Both the position numbers and the translations under genes were made by a program. The notes below the pieces were generated by a model. It worked only from the letters and a program-made list of their open reading frames with translations, searched no databases and was not told where the DNA came from. From Escherichia coli 042 (lineage in GTDB: Bacteria > Pseudomonadota > Gammaproteobacteria > Enterobacterales > Enterobacteriaceae), in the NCBI RefSeq assembly GCF_000027125.1, contig NC_017626.1: a stretch of DNA of 64,000 nt; one strand, given 5' to 3'. The first letter of the stretch is position 1. Every line of letters begins with the position of its first letter. Shown here piece by piece: positions 7,621-19,370 of this stretch.

Positions 7621-7972
7621 GGTTCACCTCCAGTTCAGGTTTACGCGCTTTACGGGTACCTGATTTGATCAATACAATCCCGGCCACCAGGGTGGTTAAC
7701 CCGGCAATTTTCATCAGCGATAAACTTTCGTCGAATAACAAAACGCTAAACAAGGTAATAAATAAAATACCGATACCTTCCCACAGCGCATAAGCCACGC
7801 CTAAGGCGATTTTTTTAACGGCGAAAGAGAGAAATATATACGACAGAGAAATCATCACCAGCATTAAAATAAAGCCGCCATTTCCCTCACTGACGCTCGC
7901 CCATTTCATGGACAGCGTACCGGTAATTTCTGTAGCAATAGCCAGGCCTAATAAAATCCAATAAATATACAT
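7607..7972 (-). CDS. mdtJ: SMR-family spermidine exporter subunit
   Basis: 121 aa; overlaps mdtI start as in K-12. Confidence 0.9.
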
Positions 7973-8383
7973 TGTCCTTCTCCTGCAAGAGAATTATTTT
8001 AATTTTCGCTTAATTCAGCGAAACCAAAGTAAAGTGGTCAAGCCCCGCGCTTAGCGCAAGCTTTGGCAGAAGAAAGGACTAAAGCGCGTTGCGCCAGTGC
8101 TGCTCACCTACGAGCAAGATAGTGGATGAGGTACGAAGATGGGTAAATGTAGAAAATAACGTCCTGAACAAATTGTCCATAATATTACAATTATCCGCAG
8201 TGTTGCTTCTCGTCATCGCGGATGATAATTGTCCTCGGTAGTTGAACACGCCTGATTTGTATCATAGCTTAAGAATTAACTCAAAATATTTTCACTTCTT
8301 TACCTGAGCGGTTTGATTTTCGTTATGATGACGGAGCGAAAAAGACATTATTATTAGCAAAGGAAGAAAAAACGGGGACAAGC

Positions 8384-8530
8384 ATGGCAAAGCCGATCAT
8401 CACGCTCAATGGCCTAAAAATCGTCATTATGTTGGGAATGCTGGTCATTATTCTCTGCGGTATCCGTTTTGCCGCCGAGATCATCGTGCCGTTTATTCTC
8501 GCATTATTTATTGCTGTTATATATAACTAA
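8384..8530 (+). pseudogene. tqsA: tqsA 5' fragment (codons 1–45) ending at the island junction
   Basis: Encodes [45 protein letters not shown] then IYN-stop from island DNA; remainder of tqsA resumes at 19546. Confidence 0.8.
8512..8520. repeat. attL core (TGCTGTTAT)
   Basis: Identical 9-mer at 19546..19554; lies at tqsA codons 44–46. Confidence 0.7.
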
Positions 8531-8591
8531 TTTCACTTAACGCATTGATTTAATTAAATGATTTGCACTACAAAAAGTGCCATAAATCGCA

Positions 8592-8650
8592 AAATGACTA
8601 CACCAGTGACTACACCGTTCGGTGCACTGTATGAAACAACGTGGAACAAA
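8592..8650. promoter_or_regulatory. arm-type repeat block (GACTACACC x2), homologous to block near attR
   Basis: atGACTACACCagtGACTACACCg plus shared flanking motifs, matching 19391..19460. Confidence 0.5.
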
Positions 8651-8929
8651 TAGACACAAGAAATATACAGGCGGGTCATCTTTCCAGGGGGAAGCGCGCT
8701 AATTCATGAGGGGCGTTAATGTTGATATGGGGATCCCCATAACGGGGCTACCGGATTTTTTTTCCGGTTAACTGTTAATCAGGCTGGTGGGCTTTACCTG
8801 TTTTGTAGGAGTGGTCATTATGACCATTCAGACAATGACCTTAATCAGAACTTTTCGCTAAAAAATGACGTTGGTCACGTCGTCCGGAAAGCACAAAATC
8901 CCGTCAATTTTTAATTAACGGTTAAACCG

Positions 8930-8990
8930 TCTTTTGTCACGGCGTGTCACTGGTTGTCACTCTCCGTCACGGTATGTCGCTACTCGTTAA
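8930..8990. repeat. helically phased TGTCAC/GTCAC array (about 5 copies)
   Basis: tgtcacggcgtgtcactggttgtcactctccgtcacggtatgtcgc, ~10–11 bp spacing; at 3' end of the leftmost island gene. Confidence 0.45.
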
Positions 8991-9268
8991 CGCCGTAACC
9001 GCTCCGGCTTCTTCCAGTGGTACGTAATTTTCTCCGTTTCCCGATACAGTGCCACGCGGCGATTGTAGGCCAGCATTTCAAGAACGCGGATCCGTATGTT
9101 GCGCATATCCACATCATTAAGCTGGATACCATCACGGCGCATCACCTCAGCAACCACACGCGCGTAATTTTCGGCGGTCACGCTGTCCGGCTGCGTGGCC
9201 TGTTCGTCATGCTGCTGGCTGATTCCGGTAACGCGGCGGATTAATCCCAGTAGTTCGGCTTCTGTCAT
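8987..9268 (-). CDS. hypothetical protein (93 aa)
   Basis: ORF 8987..9466 trimmed to Met MTEAELLG; upstream part of the track ORF is read-through of the cos repeat. Confidence 0.45.
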   Translation of the reverse strand: MTEAELLGLIRRVTGISQQHDEQATQPDSVTAENYARVVAEVMRRDGIQLNDVDMRNIRIRVLEMLAYNRRVALYRETEKITYHWKKPERLRR

Positions 9269-9301
9269 TGTGCCCCCATCGCTCTGATAGTCTGGTGTCG
9301 T

Positions 9302-9365
9302 CGGGTCCTTCCTGGAATTATGGCCCGTTACGGGGCGGCGACCTCGCGCGTTTTCACTATTTATG
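9302..9365 (+). other. lambda-type cos site, copy A (cosN GGGCGGCGACCT at 9333..9344)
   Basis: cgggtccttcc...gttacg|GGGCGGCGACCT|cgcgcgttttcactatttatgaaaattttt matches remembered lambda cosQ–cosN–left-end sequence. Confidence 0.75.
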
Positions 9366-9547
9366 AAAATTTTTCGGGATCCATGTCCGGTTTCTCTGCA
9401 AGTTAACCATATGAAAAATATAAAAACATGCTTTCCATGAACCGGACATGCGCAAAAAACAGACACTAAAACCGGACATCGAACCAGTTAACCGAAAGTG
9501 TGCACAAATCACATGCATTGCTGCGAGTGATTAACAAGTTATCGGCT

Positions 9548-9982
9548 TTACTGTTCTGTATCGGCTGATTGCTCCATGCTGGCACGGCGAACGCTTATGG
9601 CATGACGCCACCCAGCCAGAAAGCCAGCCATTTTATTTCGTGCCTTGCTCACATCTTCCGGTGAATAGCCGTAAATCTGCAAACCTTCATCAAATCGATG
9701 TTCTGTTTCTTCACTGGAGTACTCGTCACGCTCAGATGAAAGCAGCCTGGCAAACATAATTTTTTCCAGCGCACTGGTTTCTACGTGATATCTGATGGTC
9801 TCAAGACGGCTTTTACCTGAAGACCAAAGCAATGTATGCCCGATGTGATAACCGCCAGACTTTCCGCGATCCGCATTAAGATACGGCATCCCCTGTTTGG
9901 TCCATGCGCGAATAGTGGTTCTGTTAACCTTGAAATGTTCAGCTATTTCCTGCTGACTTACAAAACAAGCTTTATCAATCAT
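9548..9982 (-). CDS. Nu1-like small terminase homolog (N-terminal HTH); possible packaging-redirecting protein
   Basis: 144 aa; VSQQEIAEHFKVNRTTIRAWTKQGMP resembles lambda Nu1 VNKKQLADIFGASIRTIQNWQEQGMP; flanked by cos copies. Confidence 0.7.
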   Translation of the reverse strand: MIDKACFVSQQEIAEHFKVNRTTIRAWTKQGMPYLNADRGKSGGYHIGHTLLWSSGKSRLETIRYHVETSALEKIMFARLLSSERDEYSSEETEHRFDEGLQIYGYSPEDVSKARNKMAGFLAGWRHAISVRRASMEQSADTEQ

Positions 9983-10050
9983 AATGTTACCTTAACTGCA
10001 TGGTTAAATATTAATCAAGTGGTGGTGGTGTCACCTTCACGGAAAAACGT

Positions 10051-10114
10051 CATAAATAGCGAAAACCCGCGAGGTCGCCGCCCCGTAACGGGCCATAATT
10101 CCAGGAAGGACCCG
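10051..10114 (-). other. lambda-type cos site, copy B (cosN at 10072..10083), inverted relative to copy A
   Basis: Reverse complement is cgggtccttcctggaattatggcccgttacgGGGCGGCGACCTcgcgggttttcgctatttatg; ~90 bp upstream of the Nu1-like start. Confidence 0.75.
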
Positions 10115-10117
10115 TAA

Positions 10118-10138
10118 AAAAGCCGGATTTCTCCGGCC
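10118..10138 (-). terminator. rho-independent terminator after the 137-aa gene
   Basis: Minus strand gccggagaaatccggc followed by T-run; same hairpin recurs near 12390 and 12759. Confidence 0.6.
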
Positions 10139-10143
10139 TTGTC

Positions 10144-10557
10144 TCAGATGTTTTTCAGTATGCGATCGATGTCGCCGTCATCGCCCTGGTTTCTGCCATC
10201 GTATGCCATGCCAGCTGATACGGCTTGCGGGCTGTGCATGTCCATAAAGTTTTCAAAGGCTGCGGTAAGTTCCGGCGCAACCTTCGGACGTTCCTGCTCT
10301 ATGGTCATGCTAAGGATGCTTTTAGCCGTACCAACATCGATACAAGGCACGTTTGCCATTGCACGCAACAGCGGCTGATAGTCTTTATGCTCATGAAGCG
10401 CCATAATCGCATCAGCGCGCGGCTTGTCCTGCTCTTCCAGTTTGTTTAGTTGATGTACGGCCTCATAGGTTGATAAACCTCTGTCAGCCATTGCCCGCGC
10501 TTCGACTTTAAATTTACTCGCCAGCGGTAGCGTCATGATGCTTTCATTCGTTGCCAT
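10144..10557 (-). CDS. hypothetical protein (137 aa), last gene of capsid operon
   Basis: ORF; tightly packed after the gpD-like gene. Confidence 0.5.
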   Translation of the reverse strand: MATNESIMTLPLASKFKVEARAMADRGLSTYEAVHQLNKLEEQDKPRADAIMALHEHKDYQPLLRAMANVPCIDVGTAKSILSMTIEQERPKVAPELTAAFENFMDMHSPQAVSAGMAYDGRNQGDDGDIDRILKNI

Positions 10558-10569
10558 CGTTCCCCCTGC

Positions 10570-10905
10570 TTATCGGGCCAGCGGCTGAACGGATACGCCG
10601 GAACCCGCAAAGGCGGCGCATTTTTTCGCATCGGTGTCGACGCTCTCAGGCCAGTTAACGGCGGCAATATTGAATATCCCCGTCTTGTAACACTGTGCTG
10701 ATTTCTGCTTTGACGTGTCCACAGGGTACGAGGTCAGATAAACAGCCTTGCCAGATTCCTGACCATCCCACGGCTTAAACTCGCCATTGTCTGCCAGCAT
10801 CAGCGGGGTAAATTCCTGAATAACGCCAGCATCAGCGGCAAAATGTACCAACGTCGTGGATACCTGCTGACTGCCTGCAAATAACTCAATGTATGGAGTG
10901 TCCAT
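10570..10905 (-). CDS. head decoration protein, lambda gpD-like
   Basis: 111 aa; TPLMLADNGEFKPWDG...KTGIFNIAAVNWPESVDTDAKKCAAFAGSGVSVQ parallels lambda gpD (110 aa). Confidence 0.72.
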   Translation of the reverse strand: MDTPYIELFAGSQQVSTTLVHFAADAGVIQEFTPLMLADNGEFKPWDGQESGKAVYLTSYPVDTSKQKSAQCYKTGIFNIAAVNWPESVDTDAKKCAAFAGSGVSVQPLAR

Positions 10906-10917
10906 AGAATCCCCCCG

Positions 10918-11973
10918 TTAACCAATTTTGACGGTAACAAATTTGCGAATATCTGCCGGTACCGGCTGCGGTGCACTGTGTGTCTGCACGTACTCAATCG
11001 CCGGATCGCCGTCCTCAATCCAGTTTTTCGGGTAAAACATGTTTTGTGTTGCGCCCGTTCTTACCGCTTCCTGATCCATTATCGCACCATAGGCCACCAG
11101 CCCTTTATTGTTGGTGTTACCCAGGACCAGCAAATCAGGCTCAAGGAAATATTTTTCGGTACCATCGCTGTCAGTGTATTTGCCGGAATAGACGATAAGG
11201 GCCAGATCACCAAGATAGCCTTTAAAGCTCACCACTTCGCCCAGGTTTTTACAGGCCAGTTCGGCGGCGGATTCTGAACCACGGGAAAGATCGTACAGCT
11301 CACGGAATTTTTTAAAGCTGCGTAATGTGCGCCATACCTCAGCGCCCATAATCATGACGTTTGCGGGGCAACCAGCCTGATCAGCATAAAGCTCGATGTC
11401 ATAGATTGGGTCGTGCATGTCTTTATCCTGCTCGGACCATTTTTTACCCTTGGCCTGCTCTATGATGCAGTTTTCCGGTATTTTCCAGTCGATTTCATAG
11501 CGTTCTATGCCTTCGCCCTCAATGATGTTTTTTCCGGTCGTTACCGCATTCACCGCCAGCCATTCCACGCGTGCCTTAATGGCGTTTATCTGGCGGCGCA
11601 TGTTGCCAGTAATCAGGCGCATACGGCGATAGGTAGGGTCGTTAAGCTGTGCCGGATCTTCTCCAGCCATGCGCATGATGGTTTTCGTTGGATCGATTTC
11701 GTGCTTTGGCTTCATGTAGCCAGGTTTGATTGTGCTGGTTTCGTACCCTTTATCGCGCTGAACCTGGCTACCCACCATAGGCGAACAAAACGCCGACATG
11801 GTGACTTCTTCAATGTCCAGGGTATCCAGCATGATGTTTTGCGTGCTGAATGTCGCCACGTTCGGGAAAAACAGCGTGGTAAACAGAGGGCTGAATTTAA
11901 AATCCGCAATATCCCCGCGATTCAGGTACATGAAAAGCTGGTTAGTGTTAAGTGCCGTTGCTTTGCCTGCCAT
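10918..11973 (-). CDS. major capsid protein, lambda gpE family
   Basis: 351 aa (lambda gpE is 341 aa); adjacent to gpD-like gene. Confidence 0.75.
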   Translation of the reverse strand: MAGKATALNTNQLFMYLNRGDIADFKFSPLFTTLFFPNVATFSTQNIMLDTLDIEEVTMSAFCSPMVGSQVQRDKGYETSTIKPGYMKPKHEIDPTKTIMRMAGEDPAQLNDPTYRRMRLITGNMRRQINAIKARVEWLAVNAVTTGKNIIEGEGIERYEIDWKIPENCIIEQAKGKKWSEQDKDMHDPIYDIELYADQAGCPANVMIMGAEVWRTLRSFKKFRELYDLSRGSESAAELACKNLGEVVSFKGYLGDLALIVYSGKYTDSDGTEKYFLEPDLLVLGNTNNKGLVAYGAIMDQEAVRTGATQNMFYPKNWIEDGDPAIEYVQTHSAPQPVPADIRKFVTVKIG

Positions 11974-12212
11974 TATTCACCCCCATAATTTTTATGCATC
12001 CCAAGCGCCGCAAGTAAATAAGAGCGTACAAGTGAACCTATCGACGGCTCCGGCGTCATCAGCGGATCCAGTCCAGCCGCAACGCCAGCTTCATAGTTTT
12101 TTTTGTGGCGCTGCTTGAGCACCTCCACGATTTCGGGGCTTATGTACACCGAAACACCGCCTTTTTTCTCTTCAGCCATAGTAAGAAATTCCTCTTCGAC
12201 TAAAAAAATCAT
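11973..12212 (-). CDS. hypothetical protein (79 aa, or 68 aa from internal Met), first gene of capsid operon
   Basis: ORF; stop overlaps capsid start (ATGA). Confidence 0.45.
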   Translation of the reverse strand: MIFLVEEEFLTMAEEKKGGVSVYISPEIVEVLKQRHKKNYEAGVAAGLDPLMTPEPSIGSLVRSYLLAALGMHKNYGGE

Positions 12213-12235
12213 AACTGGATGTTTATCCAGTTATG
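12208..12235. promoter_or_regulatory. 12-bp inverted repeat (tcataactggat-gttt-atccagttatga) overlapping capsid-operon start codon
   Basis: Perfect 12-bp arms with 4-bp spacer; AT-rich region with further palindrome ttgcattttatgcaa just upstream. Confidence 0.5.
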
Positions 12236-12344
12236 ATTATAATCAGAATTGCATTTTATGCAATGATATTGAGTTATGTTGCAAATTATGAAATGATTAT
12301 CCCGATCACGAACGCCAGTGCATCCAAAAACCTCATATGCAAAA

Positions 12345-12410
12345 GCCCGATAAGAACCCTCTGACCTTATCGGGCTTTTTTTGGGCGCAAAAAAGCCGGA
12401 TTGCTCCGGC
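12345..12410. terminator. tandem hairpins (bidirectional terminator region, approximate)
   Basis: gcccgataag...cttatcgggc + T7, then aaaaaagccggattgctccggc. Confidence 0.55.
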
Positions 12411-12430
12411 TATGTGTGCTGTGTGCTGGC

Positions 12431-12655
12431 TCAGTCTCTGATCTCTTTCAGAAATTCTATCAATGCATCTATCTGTTCAGGATTTACCGCCAGCATTTCA
12501 CCGGATAGAGCACATCTCACAAAACCATGCTGATCCTTTTCAATCAGTGCGCCCGTCTCCAGGAATGCGCGGTAATCATTGATGCTCATCGTCTCCATGT
12601 TGTCAGCATGGTATTTATCACGCTGTTTTAATATCTCATCAAATTTCATCGGCAT
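12431..12655 (-). CDS. hypothetical protein (74 aa)
   Basis: ORF followed by terminator hairpin. Confidence 0.45.
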   Translation of the reverse strand: MPMKFDEILKQRDKYHADNMETMSINDYRAFLETGALIEKDQHGFVRCALSGEMLAVNPEQIDALIEFLKEIRD

Positions 12656-12758
12656 TGTTTTTTTCCTCTGTTGTGTCTGTTTGTTTCAGATAGTAACTAT
12701 GCCTGACCGTGACGAAAACCCGGTAATGCGCCATACCGTTTCAACTGGTGCAAAAAAA

Positions 12759-12774
12759 GCCGGATTTCTCCGGC
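12759..12774 (-). terminator. rho-independent terminator after PerC-like gene
   Basis: aaaaaaagccggatttctccggc. Confidence 0.6.
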
Positions 12775-12781
12775 TGTTTGA

Positions 12782-13054
12782 TTAGCTGTCCTGGTAATTG
12801 CGCCATATTTCATCACCAGCACCATCTATACCCATTTCGGCATAAGTGCGATCGACTGCCTTTTTCAGGTCTCCGAAATTATCCGGCGGCTCCGGTGCCC
12901 TCTGTGCCTTCCTTGAACATTCCAGCCGTCGCATCGTGATGTGATGCCGTTCCTTGTCTGTCTCCACCAGCTGCATGACTTCACCCCATCGCGCCGCCGC
13001 CCTCCGGTAAAAGCCTTTCGCCTCCAGTTCCTCCGCTATGCGGTCATGTACCAT
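12782..13054 (-). CDS. PerC-family transcriptional regulator-like protein
   Basis: ORF 12782..13174 trimmed to Met MVHDRIAEELEAKGFYRRAAARWGEVM, which resembles the PerC/Pch motif LExxGxWRRAAxRW. Confidence 0.55.
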   Translation of the reverse strand: MVHDRIAEELEAKGFYRRAAARWGEVMQLVETDKERHHITMRRLECSRKAQRAPEPPDNFGDLKKAVDRTYAEMGIDGAGDEIWRNYQDS

Positions 13055-13064
13055 CGTCACCCCC

Positions 13065-13475
13065 TCAGAACGAAATATCATCACCGTAAGGGTCATCGCC
13101 TCCCGCTGGTGGCTGATTACCCTGTGTGCCTGTGGTTTTGCGTCTGTTCCCGCCTGGACGTGCCGCGCGGGCACTGATTACGCTGTCTGCGATAACCTGC
13201 CAGCCCTGCCGCGTTTCTCCGTTCTGTCCGGTCCACTGGCTTACCTGCATCGTGCCGGATACGCTGGCAACATCGCCTTTTTGATGTTTAGCCAGGAAGT
13301 CGGCCTGTTTGCCAAATGCGATGACCGATAACCATAACGTCGCCTGTCCGTCCTGTGCCTGGCTGCATGGCAAAGATACCGCCATACGCGCCAGCGTCAT
13401 CGGTGTGCCCTTGCTGGTCTGTTTTACCTGCGGGTCGTCCACCAGCCGCCCGTAAGCGGCTATCTGTGCCGTCAT
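13065..13475 (-). CDS. ssb: single-stranded DNA-binding protein
   Basis: 136 aa; OB-fold segments parallel E. coli SSB; Gly/Pro-rich tail ending DDPYGDDISF (compare DFDDDIPF). Confidence 0.8.
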   Translation of the reverse strand: MTAQIAAYGRLVDDPQVKQTSKGTPMTLARMAVSLPCSQAQDGQATLWLSVIAFGKQADFLAKHQKGDVASVSGTMQVSQWTGQNGETRQGWQVIADSVISARAARPGGNRRKTTGTQGNQPPAGGDDPYGDDISF

Positions 13476-13753
13476 AATTCCACCTCTCCGGTTTTAACGT
13501 TGATGGTTGTTACCTGTTCCGCTTCGGCAATCTCCCGTTCTGTCAGCGTGGCAAAGTTTGCCGCCGCCGTGGTCATGAATGCGCTTATCAGGTCGGGATG
13601 TTCCTTCGCGTATCCTTCCCGCGTGTGGCGGTCTATCGTTCTGATTGCCACCTTTAAGGTGTGCTCAGTCATGTCTAACGCTTTATATTTTGGCTCTGTT
13701 CTGTCTCTGCGTTTTTGGGTCATTTCTCGCAACCTCTCACTTTTTCGCCTCAC
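13472..13753 (-). CDS. hypothetical protein (93 aa)
   Basis: ORF overlapping ssb start by 4 nt; 5' end overlaps iteron region. Confidence 0.4.
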   Translation of the reverse strand: MRRKSERLREMTQKRRDRTEPKYKALDMTEHTLKVAIRTIDRHTREGYAKEHPDLISAFMTTAAANFATLTEREIAEAEQVTTINVKTGEVEL

Positions 13754-13925
13754 TTTTTCAAGCGTCTCACTTCGTCGCAGTTGGGATTTTCGGTTTTTCT
13801 ATGTGTGTGTTTCATAAGTATTTTTTTACCCCTCACTTTTGAGGATGTATACAGGTCGAAAAGTGAGGGAGAGCGGGCTAATTTTGGCCCTCTTTCTATC
13901 CCCCTCGCTTTTGCTCCTCACTTTT
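13733..13925. repeat. candidate replication origin: CCTCACTTTT iterons (about 6 direct, 1 inverted) with AT-rich spacer
   Basis: Iterons at about 13733, 13748, 13764, 13829, 13859 (inverted), 13901, 13916; directly 3' of the replication ATPase gene. Confidence 0.6.
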
Positions 13926-15324
13926 ATAGCGGCGCTACATCATCCCCATCGATACGAATAACCCCATCTTTTTCCAGCTTGTACAGCCAGCGCCGGAAGT
14001 TTTTCATTTCATACCCCAGCTTTTTCATGTCATCACGTAACAGCGGGATCGTGCACTTGTCGCCGTTCTGTGTGCGTGAACGGATGCACCCCCATAGCGC
14101 GGTATGGTTTTCCGTCTTGTTCCCTGCCTCCTCGATGCGCTCCAGTTCAACAGGAGGGCGCGGATCATCCACCACCACCAGCGACGTGATTAATTCACCG
14201 TCAGCGTCGGTAAAAAGCTCCACCACGCGTAAGTCATATGCGGCTTCTTTGAGTTCCTCCGCGTCCTTCATTTTGGTGCATGAGATAACCAGCGCTTCGC
14301 TTCCTGCGTCCTCCCTGCGTATCCGGTATTCAGCATCCAGCGAAGCACGAAATGCACTGGAACCGCGCGCGCCTTTCGTCTCATCCTTGCCGGAATGGTG
14401 AACCACCAGCACCGTGGCCCCTGTGCGTCGTTTCAGTTCGTCACAACCACGGATAAACGCCCCCATATCACGGGAATCATTTTCATCATTCCCACCAAAG
14501 CAACGCGCCAGCGTATCCAGAATAATCATGCGTACAGGTTTACCCGTTTCCCGCTCCACCTGACGGGCAGCGATAACCATTTCATCAACATCAAGCGGGG
14601 CAGCCGGAAAGATGGGGCGGTTTACCAGATACAGATTTTTCACCTGCTCATCGTGCACAACCTCCCAGGCTTTTACACGACGCGGAACACCTATACCGCC
14701 TTCACCAACCACATAGAGAACCGCACCATGTGCAACCCTGCGGCCTCCCCACTGGCGACCAGTGGCAACATGGCACGCCCACGATCCAGCAAGGAATGAT
14801 TTATAGGACCCGCTAGCCCCGTATATGCTGCATAGCGATACCGCCGGAATAATCCCCTTAACCACGTAATCCAGTTGCGTGTCGTATCCGGTAGATCCAA
14901 CGCTCATCGGTAGCGTGGTTTTTCGCTGGTGTTTTTTTTCTTCCGCCGGCTCTTTCCCGCGCACCCGTTCCAGGTATTCGCGCCAGTTCTCCCGCATATG
15001 GCTGTGCATCCCTTCGGGGTAATAATTCGCATCAGTTACACCCGCCGCCGCCAGCTTGTGCGCAATGGCATTAATATTTGATGGCCTGATGTGGCCTGCC
15101 TTGTACAGCCGGACACAATAGCGCCCCTCGTCGATGATTCTCAGGTCTGCCAGTTCATCCAGTTGATCATCAGCCAGCACAACGGGAGGCACATTATCGC
15201 CAGCCAGTCGCCCGTCCTGTTCCTGCCACTGTTTCGCATGTGCCCAGGCATCACTACCCGCAAAAATAATGACTTCGGTCATCTTGTCGTAAGGCTGTTT
15301 TTTTAAGTTCGGTGCGCTTTTCAT
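13924..15324 (-). CDS. replication protein, RecA-fold ATPase / helicase-like (primase-replicase candidate)
   Basis: 466 aa; Walker A GASGSYKS, Walker B MIILDTLARCFGG, VLVVHHSGK motif typical of phage/plasmid RepA or DnaB-like ATPases. Confidence 0.75.
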   Translation of the reverse strand: MKSAPNLKKQPYDKMTEVIIFAGSDAWAHAKQWQEQDGRLAGDNVPPVVLADDQLDELADLRIIDEGRYCVRLYKAGHIRPSNINAIAHKLAAAGVTDANYYPEGMHSHMRENWREYLERVRGKEPAEEKKHQRKTTLPMSVGSTGYDTQLDYVVKGIIPAVSLCSIYGASGSYKSFLAGSWACHVATGRQWGGRRVAHGAVLYVVGEGGIGVPRRVKAWEVVHDEQVKNLYLVNRPIFPAAPLDVDEMVIAARQVERETGKPVRMIILDTLARCFGGNDENDSRDMGAFIRGCDELKRRTGATVLVVHHSGKDETKGARGSSAFRASLDAEYRIRREDAGSEALVISCTKMKDAEELKEAAYDLRVVELFTDADGELITSLVVVDDPRPPVELERIEEAGNKTENHTALWGCIRSRTQNGDKCTIPLLRDDMKKLGYEMKNFRRWLYKLEKDGVIRIDGDDVAPL

Positions 15325-15620
15325 TTCTTGCCCCTGAATCCGTTAACCATGGTTTTCAGCTTCTGGATGTTTGCCCGTGCCCTGGCGTTGCTGGTGGGCA
15401 CGTTATGCGGCGCGGTCTGTACCAGAGAAAAATCACGCCGGAACTGATAAACAGGCATCACGCAATCATATTCGTAACCTTCACGGCGGTAGGTTACGCG
15501 CCGTTCTTCCACGTCCTTAATCATTACCGTGCCGCCGTACTGGTCGCGGTAAATATCACCGCGCGTAAATTTAGGGTGAGTGTTGCCACTGGCAGTTAAG
15601 CCAGAATATTTAAGTTTCAT
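15321..15620 (-). CDS. hypothetical protein (99 aa)
   Basis: ORF overlapping rep start by 4 nt. Confidence 0.45.
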   Translation of the reverse strand: MKLKYSGLTASGNTHPKFTRGDIYRDQYGGTVMIKDVEERRVTYRREGYEYDCVMPVYQFRRDFSLVQTAPHNVPTSNARARANIQKLKTMVNGFRGKK

Positions 15621-15625
15621 TATTT

Positions 15626-15859
15626 TTATTCTCCGGTGTGCTGTTCTTTATATCTGTCGTGCAATAGATCTATTTCTTGCAGTTCCATTATTACAGGCTC
15701 AAGAAGCGTTATTAATGCTGTGGCAATTCTTGATTTTTGTTTGTCGCGTTCATTGTCGCCAAGTGTTTCAAGCCATATGCGCAATATTTCCATCATGTTT
15801 TCACTGTGAGAAAGTGCAAGAAATGCGCGGTCTATTGTTTGGTGGTAAATATCACGCAT
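15626..15859 (-). CDS. hypothetical protein (77 aa)
   Basis: ORF in operon context. Confidence 0.4.
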   Translation of the reverse strand: MRDIYHQTIDRAFLALSHSENMMEILRIWLETLGDNERDKQKSRIATALITLLEPVIMELQEIDLLHDRYKEQHTGE

Positions 15860-16319
15860 GGCTTACATCCTCAGGAAATTTTCTTCTATAACGCGCCTCT
15901 GCCACATATTCCGCATAATCGGCGGCGATATTCAGTACATCAAGCCCCGTTGATTTATATTCTCTCGTGGAAAGTAAGAAAAAAGCCGCTCTAATAAGTT
16001 CTGGCATTGACGAAAGCGCATCAGCCGCATCATCAGGAACGCCGGAAAATTCCTGTTTCAGGGAATTAAAACGATCATCACGCATAACCCCCCCCCCATT
16101 TTCACAATCAGCAATCAGGATAGCTTTGGCCTCATTCAGCGCCGTATCAGCACTAAATTGCATGACAGCCAGTGAGTGAGGAACGAAAGCACCGGCATAT
16201 TCTGTTTCGCTGGTGGCGTGCTTATGTGCCCTGTCCGCGATAACAGAAATATCAATCAGCGCGTGCATCAGCGTTTTGATGGCTTCGGCGGCTGCGTCCG
16301 GTGTGGTTTTATTGTGCAT
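15852..16319 (-). CDS. hypothetical protein (155 aa) containing a G10 homopolymer
   Basis: ORF; codons GGG-GGG-GGG at 16088..16097. Confidence 0.45.
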   Translation of the reverse strand: MHNKTTPDAAAEAIKTLMHALIDISVIADRAHKHATSETEYAGAFVPHSLAVMQFSADTALNEAKAILIADCENGGGVMRDDRFNSLKQEFSGVPDDAADALSSMPELIRAAFFLLSTREYKSTGLDVLNIAADYAEYVAEARYRRKFPEDVSHA

Positions 16320-16521
16320 AAAGCATCCCCTGAATATTCGTGTTAATCATTCCGGCACGTTTTGTGATTTCCTGTAATGATTCCCTTGTGGCGACAATTG
16401 CTTCATCTGGTAAGTGGTAATTACACACCACGCGACCTTTATCCACATTGACCAGTAGCTGCCCTGTGAATTTCTCACGAAACTGAATGCGGTTAAGGTC
16501 AGTAAGTGACAGATTAATCAT
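16309..16521 (-). CDS. hypothetical protein (about 70 aa from internal Met MINLSL)
   Basis: ORF 16309..16563 starts at GTG; ATG at 16521 is the likelier start. Confidence 0.4.
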   Translation of the reverse strand: MINLSLTDLNRIQFREKFTGQLLVNVDKGRVVCNYHLPDEAIVATRESLQEITKRAGMINTNIQGMLYAQ

Positions 16522-16711
16522 GGCGCACCTCCTGACGAATACGGGCGGCAAATACAGCAACACAACCGGACGGGCAACGGTTACGCGCTTCGCGTTCCGT
16601 CCAGGCGGTTACGTGGATGATTTGAGATTCTCCGGCACTCAGTGCCAGAAAACGCCACACAAAGGCCGTTTGTGTGTGTACAAGGTGTGGTATATGATTT
16701 ACAGCAACCAT
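16514..16711 (-). CDS. hypothetical small protein (about 65 aa), first gene leftward of regulatory region
   Basis: ORF 16514..16786 trimmed to Met MVAVNH. Confidence 0.3.
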   Translation of the reverse strand: MVAVNHIPHLVHTQTAFVWRFLALSAGESQIIHVTAWTEREARNRCPSGCVAVFAARIRQEVRHD

Positions 16712-16803
16712 AACGGCTCCTAGTTTACGTTGTTGGTTAGAAGCCCTGCGAGTGGTAACGACACTTGCGGGGCTTTGTCTTTTCATCGATTACCTTGATA
16801 AAG

Positions 16804-16884
16804 GTGTCAGCCACTATATTAGTAACGGGTGTCAGCCACGTCAATAGTGTTTTTCCGTTTTCTTGTGTGTATACTGTCAGCCAC
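16804..16884. promoter_or_regulatory. divergent regulatory region with three direct repeats GTCAGCCAC
   Basis: Repeats at 16806..16814, 16831..16839, 16876..16884; tatact box and aggaaa RBS precede the plus-strand small gene. Confidence 0.6.
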
Positions 16885-16905
16885 CTAATAACGAGGAAAT
16901 CAGAT

Positions 16906-17085
16906 ATGGCAACAAAAGCAGTTAATGCAAAATCCAAAAAGCTTGAGGCTCGAGTACCACACGCAATAGCTGATGCTGTAGAAAATTTAAAGGAAGATGG
17001 CGAAAGTACAGGGCAATTTATCGTTTCGGCACTTGAAGGCGAGATCAAACGCCGCCAGCGCCGCAAGGCCAAAGAATCAGAATAA
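16906..17085 (+). CDS. small ribbon-helix-helix-like DNA-binding protein (59 aa), candidate island regulator
   Basis: KKLEARVPHAIADAVENLKEDGESTGQFIVSALEGEI resembles Arc/CopG RHH; transcribed divergently from the leftward gene block. Confidence 0.5.
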   Translation: MATKAVNAKSKKLEARVPHAIADAVENLKEDGESTGQFIVSALEGEIKRRQRRKAKESE

Positions 17086-17127
17086 TCACTATCAGCGCCG
17101 TGGTGTGAGGTATTACGGCGCATTGCT

Positions 17128-17316
17128 ATGCAGGACAACACAATGACCGATAAAGAATTGACCAAAACATTATCACCGGCACGGAAAAGACGGCGCAGAA
17201 AGATAGAGCATGAATCAGAAAGATTCGCACCATGTGCTTTTGCCCTTGAGCAATTCCTTAAAGAGTACAGGGAAAAGCGCTCATTGCAGGTATGGCAACG
17301 AACTGAACCAGACTGA
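17128..17316 (+). CDS. hypothetical basic small protein (62 aa)
   Basis: ORF downstream of RHH gene; Arg/Lys-rich. Confidence 0.35.
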   Translation: MQDNTMTDKELTKTLSPARKRRRRKIEHESERFAPCAFALEQFLKEYREKRSLQVWQRTEPD

Positions 17317-17394
17317 TTGCATTGCCCACCAGCCTGATAGCGGCTATCATCCCCGTGCTTATGTTTGGGATCACACACACAAACGGCGCAGCGG

Positions 17395-17430
17395 GTTATC
17401 TGTTCAGAAAGGCGGCTCCATTTCGGGGCC
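17395..17430 (+). terminator. candidate terminator of the plus-strand pair (approximate)
   Basis: ggcggctccatttcggggccgc followed by tttttta. Confidence 0.45.
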
Positions 17431-17585
17431 GCTTTTTTTATACCTGAAAAACCCCAATTTTGTTGTTTTTCAGTTTCACCAGGGCGAACGAATCCCCGCC
17501 CACGTTCTGGCGTATATTCAATCTTCATGGTTATAGCTCTGTGTTCAGATGATTGATGTGTGGCGGCTGCGTGCCGCCAGCGTGA

Positions 17586-17774
17586 TTAATGAACTGCCTT
17601 GCAGCTATCCTTCCAGGCCAGAACCTCGGATAAAGACCAGCCAACGGAACGACCGCCAAGTTTACGACGTGATGGGAATTGTCCGGCCTTTTCCAGGCGG
17701 TAGCGACACGTACGGCTAAGGCCGGTTAGTTTTTCGCATTCTTTTTCACGTATAAACCGATCAGTGCTTAACAC
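17586..17774 (-). CDS. alpA: AlpA-family phage transcriptional regulator / excisionase-like
   Basis: 62 aa; LTGLSRTCRYRLEKAGQFPSRRKLGGRSVGWSLSEVLAW matches AlpA HTH pattern. Confidence 0.8.
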   Translation of the reverse strand: MLSTDRFIREKECEKLTGLSRTCRYRLEKAGQFPSRRKLGGRSVGWSLSEVLAWKDSCKAVH

Positions 17775-18140
17775 TATTGCCCCCCCTTTCGTTTCTTAAA
17801 GAGTCATCAGGTGTCTTATTGTGTCGTATTGTTCCCGCTAGAGTGATGAATGGCAAATATTGAGGATGTATGATTTACAGAAAATGAAACAGTAAGAATA
17901 AAATCTTTTAAATTCATGTTAATACAAAGGCATAAAATATTGTTTCATGCCTTTTTTCTCGCTCTTTAAAGAGTGATTCGCTAGTGTATAAAAAACCAGT
18001 GACACATTAAAAATCAGCCACTTATAAATCTGTATGCTTTTTCGCCTCTTGTTCGTGGTTGTTCCACATTGTTGCTCATTGTTGCACGTTGTATCTGTTC
18101 GCATATACAGTATGCGCATACTGAAAAAACACGAAAAAAA

Positions 18141-19370
18141 TTATTTTCTTCTGGCTACTGGTAGCGTGGTTACGTTTTCATGTGTTCCCGCCAGTATCCC
18201 TAACCGCTCCGTCCACATATCCAGCGCATTGCGTTTAGCATCCAGATAACGGGAATGATTATAAACTCGCTGCATTCCTGGCATCTGGTGGCCTGTAAGC
18301 TGCTCCACGACATGCGGATCAACGCCTAAATCGTTCAGCATGGTTGTAAAGGTGCGCCGGATGTCATGCAGTGACCAGTGAGGATGATTAAGCCTCCTGT
18401 GCGCTAATCTTCCATACTGCGATACGCTGGCCTCCTGTTTCACTTCCCCCAGCAATAAGCCCGTGTGCCTGTTCTGCTCCACCAGCTGCGTGACGAACGG
18501 CAGGATCGCTTCCGGTATGGGCCGGAATATTGCGACCTTCGTTTTGCTGTGCTCCTTCGGAACGGTCCATAGCATTTCCGTAAAATCCCACTCCCCGATC
18601 TCCGATAACCTCAGTTCTACCGTTCTGGCTCCGAAGACAATCAGGAGGCGGATTAACGCGACGTAGTAAGGGGAGAATATTTTTTTGTCCAGTGCCTGCA
18701 ATAATTCGCCAAGTTCTTTGTTACTTAAGACACGTTCGCTTATATCCGGTTTTTTCCCAACGTCCGCCACGTTCAGATCGTCCAGAACGTTGCTGATTGC
18801 ATAGCGCCGCCTACGGCAGAACTTAAGCGCCTGTTTGCACGCCTGTAGCACGAATCCGGCAGTAACAGGCGTTCGCTTTGCCACCTGGTCAAAACAGGCC
18901 AGCCAGTGCCGTAGCTCGCATTTATCCAGCGGCATAGCACCAATCTGCTGTATTACGTGATTATTAAGTCGCCTTTTCAGGGCGATATAATCCACGCGGT
19001 TTTCCTTTACGTAATACTCAAGCCAGTAGGTGAGCGCATCGCCAACCGTTACCGGCTTTAACGCTTCCTGTACGGTGTAATTAAGCTCATGACGTGGATT
19101 TTTCCCCTCTGCCAGCCATGCGCGACACTGGGCGGCTTTTTCCCTGGCTGATTTCAGGCTCAGATCAGGATAACTTCCCAGCTTAATGCGTTCGGGTCGT
19201 GTCTCCCTTCCCGTTCCGGCCCTGTATGTGAAATACCAGGTCAATTTCCCTGATGTTAAATATTTCACGCTCAGGTTTCCGCCATCACTATAAAACGTGT
19301 TTTTCTCCGCTGGCTTACCATGAAGTTTCCTTAGCAAGGTATCGCTCAGTTTGTTCATTGCTCTGCTCAC
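18141..19370 (-). CDS. int: tyrosine site-specific integrase (P4-like, N-terminal arm-binding domain)
   Basis: 409 aa; C-terminal HDIRRT...GHQ...VYNHSRY catalytic motifs; adjacent to attR. Confidence 0.9.
   Translation of the reverse strand: MSRAMNKLSDTLLRKLHGKPAEKNTFYSDGGNLSVKYLTSGKLTWYFTYRAGTGRETRPERIKLGSYPDLSLKSAREKAAQCRAWLAEGKNPRHELNYTVQEALKPVTVGDALTYWLEYYVKENRVDYIALKRRLNNHVIQQIGAMPLDKCELRHWLACFDQVAKRTPVTAGFVLQACKQALKFCRRRRYAISNVLDDLNVADVGKKPDISERVLSNKELGELLQALDKKIFSPYYVALIRLLIVFGARTVELRLSEIGEWDFTEMLWTVPKEHSKTKVAIFRPIPEAILPFVTQLVEQNRHTGLLLGEVKQEASVSQYGRLAHRRLNHPHWSLHDIRRTFTTMLNDLGVDPHVVEQLTGHQMPGMQRVYNHSRYLDAKRNALDMWTERLGILAGTHENVTTLPVARRK

Follow-up and report, generated by a model that had tools for sequence, protein, structure and literature searches.

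A run of ten G residues inside an open reading frame (ORF) raises the question of whether the run switches a single gene on and off, as the initial annotation had proposed, or reflects another kind of gene organization. The run was found in a stretch of 64,000 nucleotides from Escherichia coli 042, all of which was analysed and is called the window here. Direct reading of the window shows ten consecutive C on the plus strand at 16088-16097. On the minus strand this segment reads AAT GGG GGG GGG GTT ATG (...CENGGGVMRDD...) and lies inside an ORF of 155 aa (15852..16319, minus strand), in which the run (16088..16097) codes for Gly75-77 and the first base of Val78 and also forms a Shine-Dalgarno (SD)-like run 5' of an internal ATG. 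The presence of a ten-base tract within the 155-aa ORF, as originally described, is confirmed by this reading and by an identical copy in the independent assembly L105 (GCA_015160475.1). The tract is the longest homopolymer of the 64-kb window, and no other G/C run there exceeds 7. Base composition predicts 0.04-0.1 G/C runs of at least 10 per 64 kb, which makes the tract unusual but does not by itself overwhelmingly exclude chance. Being an SSR within an ORF and longer than expected by chance, it shares this feature with phase-variable genes. Window positions 5852-26319 match L105 over 20,468 nt with zero differences, G10 included, and the exact 155-aa product was found on 41 contigs, among them the E. 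coli 042 protein CBG34591.1. Because of this identity and recurrence, the G10 of the window is no private miscall.

The 155-aa ORF belongs to the early operon of a phage satellite. All genes of the island discussed here lie on the minus strand, in the order tyrosine integrase (18141..19370), AlpA (17586..17774; Phage_AlpA, the PICI activator gene), Icd-like host cell division inhibitor (16514..16711; 65 aa), 70-aa gene (16309..16521; PHROG 340), 155-aa ORF, 77-aa gene (15626..15859; PHROG 2196), DUF4222 gene (15321-15620), RepA/AAA_25 helicase (13924-15324), SSB, PerC-like regulator, and major capsid (Phage_cap_E) and head-decoration (HDPD) genes (10570..11973). The last two were assigned by Pfam on L105, which is identical to the window. 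The operon genes around the 155-aa ORF overlap their neighbours by 8-11 nt, the 70-aa gene overlapping the start of the 155-aa ORF by 11 nt, and the replication module (13924..15620) is located in the same operon, 3' of the 155-aa ORF. The island thus combines int and alpA at one end, a replication module (RepA/AAA_25, SSB), and its own Phage_cap_E and HDPD genes, the gene content of the EcCIEDL933 family. The Phage_cap_E and HDPD genes identify it as a capsid-forming PICI. The prototype of these elements, EcCIEDL933 (bioRxiv 10.1101/2022.09.08.507074), shows the same order of int, alpA, Icd-like gene, small ORFs, DUF4222, RepA helicase, SSB, PerC, and capsid/decoration genes, whereas the window island occupies a different place in the chromosome, between the pntB/tqsA side and mdtJI/ydgD, and has a G10 tract. 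EcCIEDL933 has been shown to be induced by a helper phage through AlpA and to be packaged in small capsids of its own making that carry helper tails (10.1101/2022.09.08.507074). That paper makes no mention of the gene of the 155-aa ORF or of its tract.

Several other features of the island were recorded. Its sole other long G/C run is the SD of alpA, at window positions 17780-17786 (C7 on the plus strand, G7 on the minus strand), 5 nt 5' of the alpA GTG at 17774. The length of this run also varies among 42 related loci with the same flanks (28 with G5, 4 with G6, 8 with G7, and 2 with G8), and such variation could modulate alpA translation. Homopolymers of at least 7 bases are concentrated in the island, since 15 of the window's 31 lie in the ~11-kb island region 7810-18686, which makes up 17% of the window. 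Between alpA and the Icd-like gene is a 263-aa ORF (16737-17528, minus strand) that RefSeq relatives list only as an Icd-like pseudogene lacking its C-terminus; gene callers disagree on this region, giving 263 aa, 241 aa, 494 aa, or nothing. The PerC-family regulator gene (12782-13174, minus strand) is weakly ANR-like, and a related E. coli PICI has been reported as a repressor of the LEE pathogenicity island (PMC11773190). Comparison of window positions 5852-26319 with loci L103-L124 revealed that the early-gene block with an identical N-half protein is joined to two packaging modules, either Phage_cap_E/HDPD, as in the window, or HK97-type capsid/protease/portal/TerL. The chromosomal sites of the block in these loci also differ, comprising the pntB-tqsA/mdtJI site, the roxA site, and a site inside a prophage. 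The same early block with different packaging modules and sites points to modular exchange among these satellites.

The tract marks the junction of two modules that the G10 allele joins in frame. The N-module comprises codons 1-74 (16098..16319, minus strand), belongs to PHROG 5146, and is predicted to be a helical hairpin. The C-module comprises 77 aa from Met79 (15852..16085, minus strand), with its ATG at 16083-16085, and belongs to PHROG 24341. The whole protein belongs to a third family, PHROG 2512, so that three PHROG families describe one locus. The ATG of the C-module is located two bases 3' of the G-run, and its 77-aa ORF is unbroken in split copies. The C-module is annotated as a CDS of its own in G8, G9, G11, and G12 strains, and RefSeq lists in G8 and G9 strains the 77-aa CDS together with an N-terminal CDS of 79 or 86 aa.

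Tract length determines which of three arrangements the junction takes. Lengths of 3k+1 (4, 7, 10, 13) give read-through and one fused protein with a linker of two to four Gly. Lengths of 3k+2 (5, 8, 11) give two genes with an 8-nt start/stop overlap, ATGCGTGA (16078..16085, minus strand), in which the TGA stop of the N-module overlaps the start of the C-module. Lengths of 3k (6, 9, 12) give an N-protein with a 12-residue tail and a separate C-gene. A second ATGCGTGA at 15852..15859 (minus strand) is the true start/stop overlap of the 155-aa ORF with the next gene. The two copies lie within 226 bp of the minus strand, each at a gene junction, and both downstream ORFs begin with MRD; the octamer occurs five times in the whole window, with 2.7 copies expected. 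Paralogy of the C-half and the downstream 77-aa gene was rejected, as the two show no similarity, and an internal duplication linking the N-half and the C-half was rejected on the same ground.

The G-run also resembles a ribosome-binding site for the C-module. Its duplex with the 16S anti-SD has a predicted energy of -11.1 kcal/mol, equal to that of the best SD of the operon and stronger than in more than 99% of random 20-mers. The run ends 2 nt before the ATG, so that good SD spacing exists for its upstream part only. G5, G8, and G11 alleles have both the start/stop overlap and the SD of a coupled overlapping gene pair, while the G10 of the window bypasses the stop. Met79 is retained in 134 of 135 fused proteins, and we infer that translation can start at this codon. 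Fusion can also arise by a second path. Four fused variants of 154 aa (P0002, P0031, P0040, and P0042) have GGG-M without Val, having regained the frame via the TT spacer and not via the G-run.

Tract length differs among close relatives. In near-identical islands with invariant flanks, the tract is G10 in the window, G9 in JB2, G8 in O55:H7, and G7 in O157:H7. O157:H7-type islands share 99.6-99.8% identity with the window over 1 kb around the tract, with 99.6% for the O157:H7 copies, which have G7. A variable-gap scan gathered 90 copies from IMG/VR, containing G7 (23 copies), G8 (34), G9 (18), G10 (4), and G11 (2), along with interrupted tracts. For public assemblies, the product predicted for each tract length on the window's own N-half backbone was looked up exactly; it was present on 24 contigs for G5, 70 for G6, at least 1000 for G7, 912 for G8, 140 for G9, 41 for G10, 19 for G11, 4 for G12, and 2 for G13, numbers that, like the other database counts, are skewed by clonal oversampling (O157:H7 for G7). 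BLAST searches of 5,426 complete E. coli genomes, at E-value thresholds passing perfect full-length matches alone, found perfect 80-nt flanks around G6 in 4 cases, G7 in 231, G8 in 17, and G9 in 2; neither G10 nor G11 was found between such flanks in these genomes. The variants of 9, 10, and 11 bases that the initial annotation had advised looking for in related islands are thus present, within a series of G5-G13 on one backbone and of G7-G11 in IMG/VR. An invariant length among homologous islands, named there as the contrary outcome, is contradicted by this series.

The tempo of these changes was assessed at several levels of divergence. Of 10 groups that share an identical 441-nt gene backbone, 6 contain different tract lengths. 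In a gap-free comparison aligned at the tract, ~0.75 of pairs differ in length whatever their level of divergence, indicating that the tract is saturated relative to point substitutions. Three isolates that align over 20.2 kb without mismatch carry G11, G12 (L120), and G13 (L123). Differences in length between identical gene backbones and within identical 20-kb surroundings support the original suggestion that the tract is prone to slippage. Indel rates in E. coli climb exponentially with run length (PMC8510543), and length-dependent instability is therefore expected. The shorter alleles are stable within clones: G7 was found in all listed O157:H7 and most O145:H28 genomes, and G8 in all O55:H7 genomes and in 13 of 13 sampled members of an ST73 group of 59 genomes, including several independent Nissle 1917 assemblies and ATCC 25922. 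CFT073 (98.3% identity) also has the G8 length.

Frame usage was examined among 80 distinct backbone/tract combinations. The fused frame accounts for 21 of them (26%; p=0.19 vs 1/3), and the ATGCGTGA-overlap frame is the commonest, with 38 (p=0.009). The surplus of the overlap frame may stem from weak selection or simply from a length distribution centred on G8. With 41 contigs, G10 does not exceed the geometric mean of its neighbours G9 and G11 (~52). No excess of in-frame lengths was found in the 80 combinations or in the contig counts. Among split copies, the C-ORF of 77 or 73 aa is intact in ~55 of 57 interpretable cases, and both ORFs are nearly always intact. Tracts that an interruption has locked out of frame persist across backbones that have diverged by 3-10%, again with both ORFs intact. 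The N-half has a dN/dS ratio of 0.26 and the C-half one of 0.47. Split-split pairs give 0.44 for the C-half, compared with 0.62 for fused-fused pairs, indicating that splitting does not relax selection on this half, with the reservation that the pairs are phylogenetically non-independent and that split-split pairs may include fused time if the state flips fast.

More distant relatives contain the modules as separate genes. An exhaustive HMMER search retrieved a small family of 51 clusters at 50% identity, which consists of fused proteins, stand-alone N-halves, and stand-alone C-halves. The stand-alone C-genes (75-76 aa, 37-41% identity) begin at the equivalent of Met79, have GGAGG-type SDs, and sit behind unrelated genes in AlpA...DUF4222-primase islands. 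The stand-alone N-genes, of 77-84 aa, terminate at the position of the Gly run. Other genes, with short G-run SDs, come next, and the junctions are cagggggcgcaccATG and aagggggttgatcATG. In a further distant lineage, L126 contains ...CCCCGGGGGATAATGAGTATGAATAA (G5), which gives two genes with a ATGAATAA overlap, and in L125 the run at this position is G4, so that the pair becomes one fused ORF of 144 aa. The G4/G5 pair of L125 and L126 is an independent replicate of the fused/split toggle. Together with the stand-alone modules, it indicates that the gene pair has been joined and separated repeatedly by slippage in the SD G-run of its second gene.

Searches for a function returned little. The 155-aa protein and its neighbours had no match in Pfam, NCBIfam, PADLOC, or PDB sequences, and all of their PHROG matches are to function-unassigned families. 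A first AF2 model of the 155-aa protein was unusable (pLDDT 50). A second, built on a more diverse alignment, reached a pLDDT of 65 and predicted helical modules at residues 9-73 and 96-147 (pLDDT ~70-80), joined by a low-confidence linker at 76-92 containing the Gly run. Foldseek searches of this second model against the PDB returned generic helical-hairpin matches only (E>1). In a literature search, no paper was found that ties PICIs to homopolymer variation or that names the gene of the 155-aa ORF.

We consider it probable that the tract is hypermutable, derives from an SD, and lies at the junction of two early PICI genes whose translation is coupled, and that its three frame states (fused, 8-nt overlap, and long tail) are tolerated. 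The N-module and the C-module would originally have been two small, separate genes in the early, alpA-side operon of an EcCIEDL933-like PICI. The G-run would derive from the SD of the C-module and probably still acts as one. Replication slippage would alter its length and thereby fuse or separate the gene pair, and would mostly not turn one gene on or off. As all three states appear to be tolerated, tract length may drift in a near-neutral manner, slowly at G7-G8 and faster at G9 and above, and the fused and split forms would be functionally equivalent; "tolerated" cannot be separated here from "functionally different, both useful". The copy in the window would then represent the fused state of such a tract in an EcCIEDL933-like capsid-forming PICI.

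Other explanations of the same data were weighed. In a classical contingency locus, the 155-aa protein would be the functional unit, and slippage of the G-run would turn it reversibly on and off at high frequency, giving phenotypic heterogeneity of the island or its host. A homopolymer within an ORF that is polymorphic even among identical backbones would agree with this, as would the longer runs, which look less stable, as expected (PMC8510543). However, the C-half has its own conserved ATG and SD-like run and is a stand-alone gene elsewhere, in-frame lengths are not enriched, selection on the C-half is not relaxed when it is split, locked out-of-frame alleles persist, and neither G7 nor G8 changes among hundreds of clone members or in repeat sequencing of one strain. 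A contingency locus is therefore unlikely, and the phase-variable on/off gene of the initial annotation appears a poor fit to an ORF that is a fusion of modules separate elsewhere, with both parts intact out of frame. Gene decay, in which the fused gene is ancestral and functional and the out-of-frame alleles are pseudogenes arising where an accessory gene is dispensable, could account for the high frequency of out-of-frame alleles of a gene that has no known function and that the EcCIEDL933 studies did not mark as essential. Yet secondary decay is almost absent in the split copies, where nearly all interpretable C-ORFs are intact, both halves have a dN/dS below 1 that does not rise when they are split, and the distant stand-alone modules indicate that the two-gene state is old and not derived. 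We regard decay as quite improbable.

Homopolymer miscalls as the source of both the window's tract length and the apparent polymorphism are extremely improbable. Long G/C runs are error-prone on most platforms, and the G13 of L123 differs from the G12 of L120 by a single further change in 20 kb, which is itself in a homopolymer (an A8/A7 run; its counterpart in the window is T7 at 13821-13827, 5' of the RepA helicase gene). The G6 alleles of complete genomes come mostly from one PacBio O145 series. The G11, G12, and G13 alleles on identical 20-kb backgrounds may thus reflect either true instability or miscalling, and errors of sequencing or assembly may account for part of the variation among tracts of G11 or longer, and possibly for the G6 of PacBio-only O145 genomes. 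On the other hand, the same length recurs across independent projects, O55:H7 being always G8, G7 occurring in 231 complete genomes, and all sampled ST73-type genomes sharing G8; the G10 of the window recurs both in an identical 20.5-kb locus and on dozens of contigs, and the split CDSs are consistently annotated. Cross-project reproducibility excludes pure artefact for G7-G10, although artefact may inflate G11-13. The early warning that sequencing errors concentrate at this tract holds for the longest runs. Programmed recoding, by RNA polymerase slippage or ribosomal -1/+1 frameshifting on the G-run, would yield fused and unfused products from any allele, with DNA length tuning their ratio. 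A G-run of at least 7 is formally slippery, fusion would be regained by a -1 shift in G9-type or a +1 shift in G8-type alleles, and recoding would account for the indifference to DNA frame. Efficient transcriptional slippage in bacteria is known at A/T runs, however, and efficient -1 frameshift sites are A/U-rich, which leaves recoding rather unlikely, possibly as an addition to the coupled-gene reading. It is likewise doubtful that the tract is an evolved satellite switch between a fused protein and two subunits (or of their ratio, via SD strength), which would diversify PICI-helper interplay (induction specificity, interference, host-cell control) in an E. coli population. If true, such a switch would be a mobile-element contingency locus in a species with few SSR switches.

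The coupled-gene junction shares features with several known systems. Like the poly-G/C contingency loci of Neisseria, Haemophilus, Campylobacter, and Helicobacter, it has a coding G/C homopolymer in which slipped-strand length change shifts the frame. The PICI locus departs from them in several ways. A frame change would not silence its downstream region, which has a start codon and SD to itself, frame usage is unbiased, and short alleles remain constant within clones. Its host, E. coli, is MMR-proficient, and the gene belongs to the early genes of a phage satellite and not to the surface or R-M genes. Homopolymeric tracts in Bordetella are longer than expected by chance and polymorphic between strains, some being fixed in lineages and some varying within a culture (Gogol et al., 2007; PMC1891110). 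In that study, cultures were genotyped directly and one tract was linked to expression (PMC1891110). The distinction between slow microevolution and true phase variation drawn from those tracts arises for the PICI tract too, which differs in being known from assemblies alone and in sitting at a gene-gene junction. Coupled overlapping genes (ATGnnTGA or ATGA) are found in phage and satellite operons, and the G8-frame junction, an 8-nt ATGCGTGA identical to the operon's next junction, resembles them, except that the SD of the downstream gene has apparently grown into a long, unstable homopolymer able to abolish the stop and fuse the pair. At fusion/fission and slippage sites such as dnaX, IS-element transposases, and the phage tail-chaperone G/GT, two overlapping frames likewise give separate or joined products at a slippery run. 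There, the ribosome or RNA polymerase joins the products at a fixed ratio, whereas the PICI locus has heritable DNA-length alleles.

Homopolymer slippage, lineage-level microevolution as in Bordetella (PMC1891110), and overlapping coupled genes are already known, and the locus alone shows no new mechanism; its modest novelty is that of a well-populated example from an E. coli phage satellite. For strain typing, the tract is a fast-evolving marker that separates otherwise identical islands, and it is unreliable above ~G10 in short-read assemblies. For annotation, a single locus in different slippage states underlies the "155-aa hypothetical protein" of thousands of E. coli genomes as well as the paired "hypothetical proteins" of 79/86 aa and 77 aa, and it should be annotated as a pair of gene modules instead of one gene with pseudogene fragments. 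For PICI biology, the locus provides a conserved, unstudied early gene pair next to alpA and icd, together with a natural fused/split allelic series.
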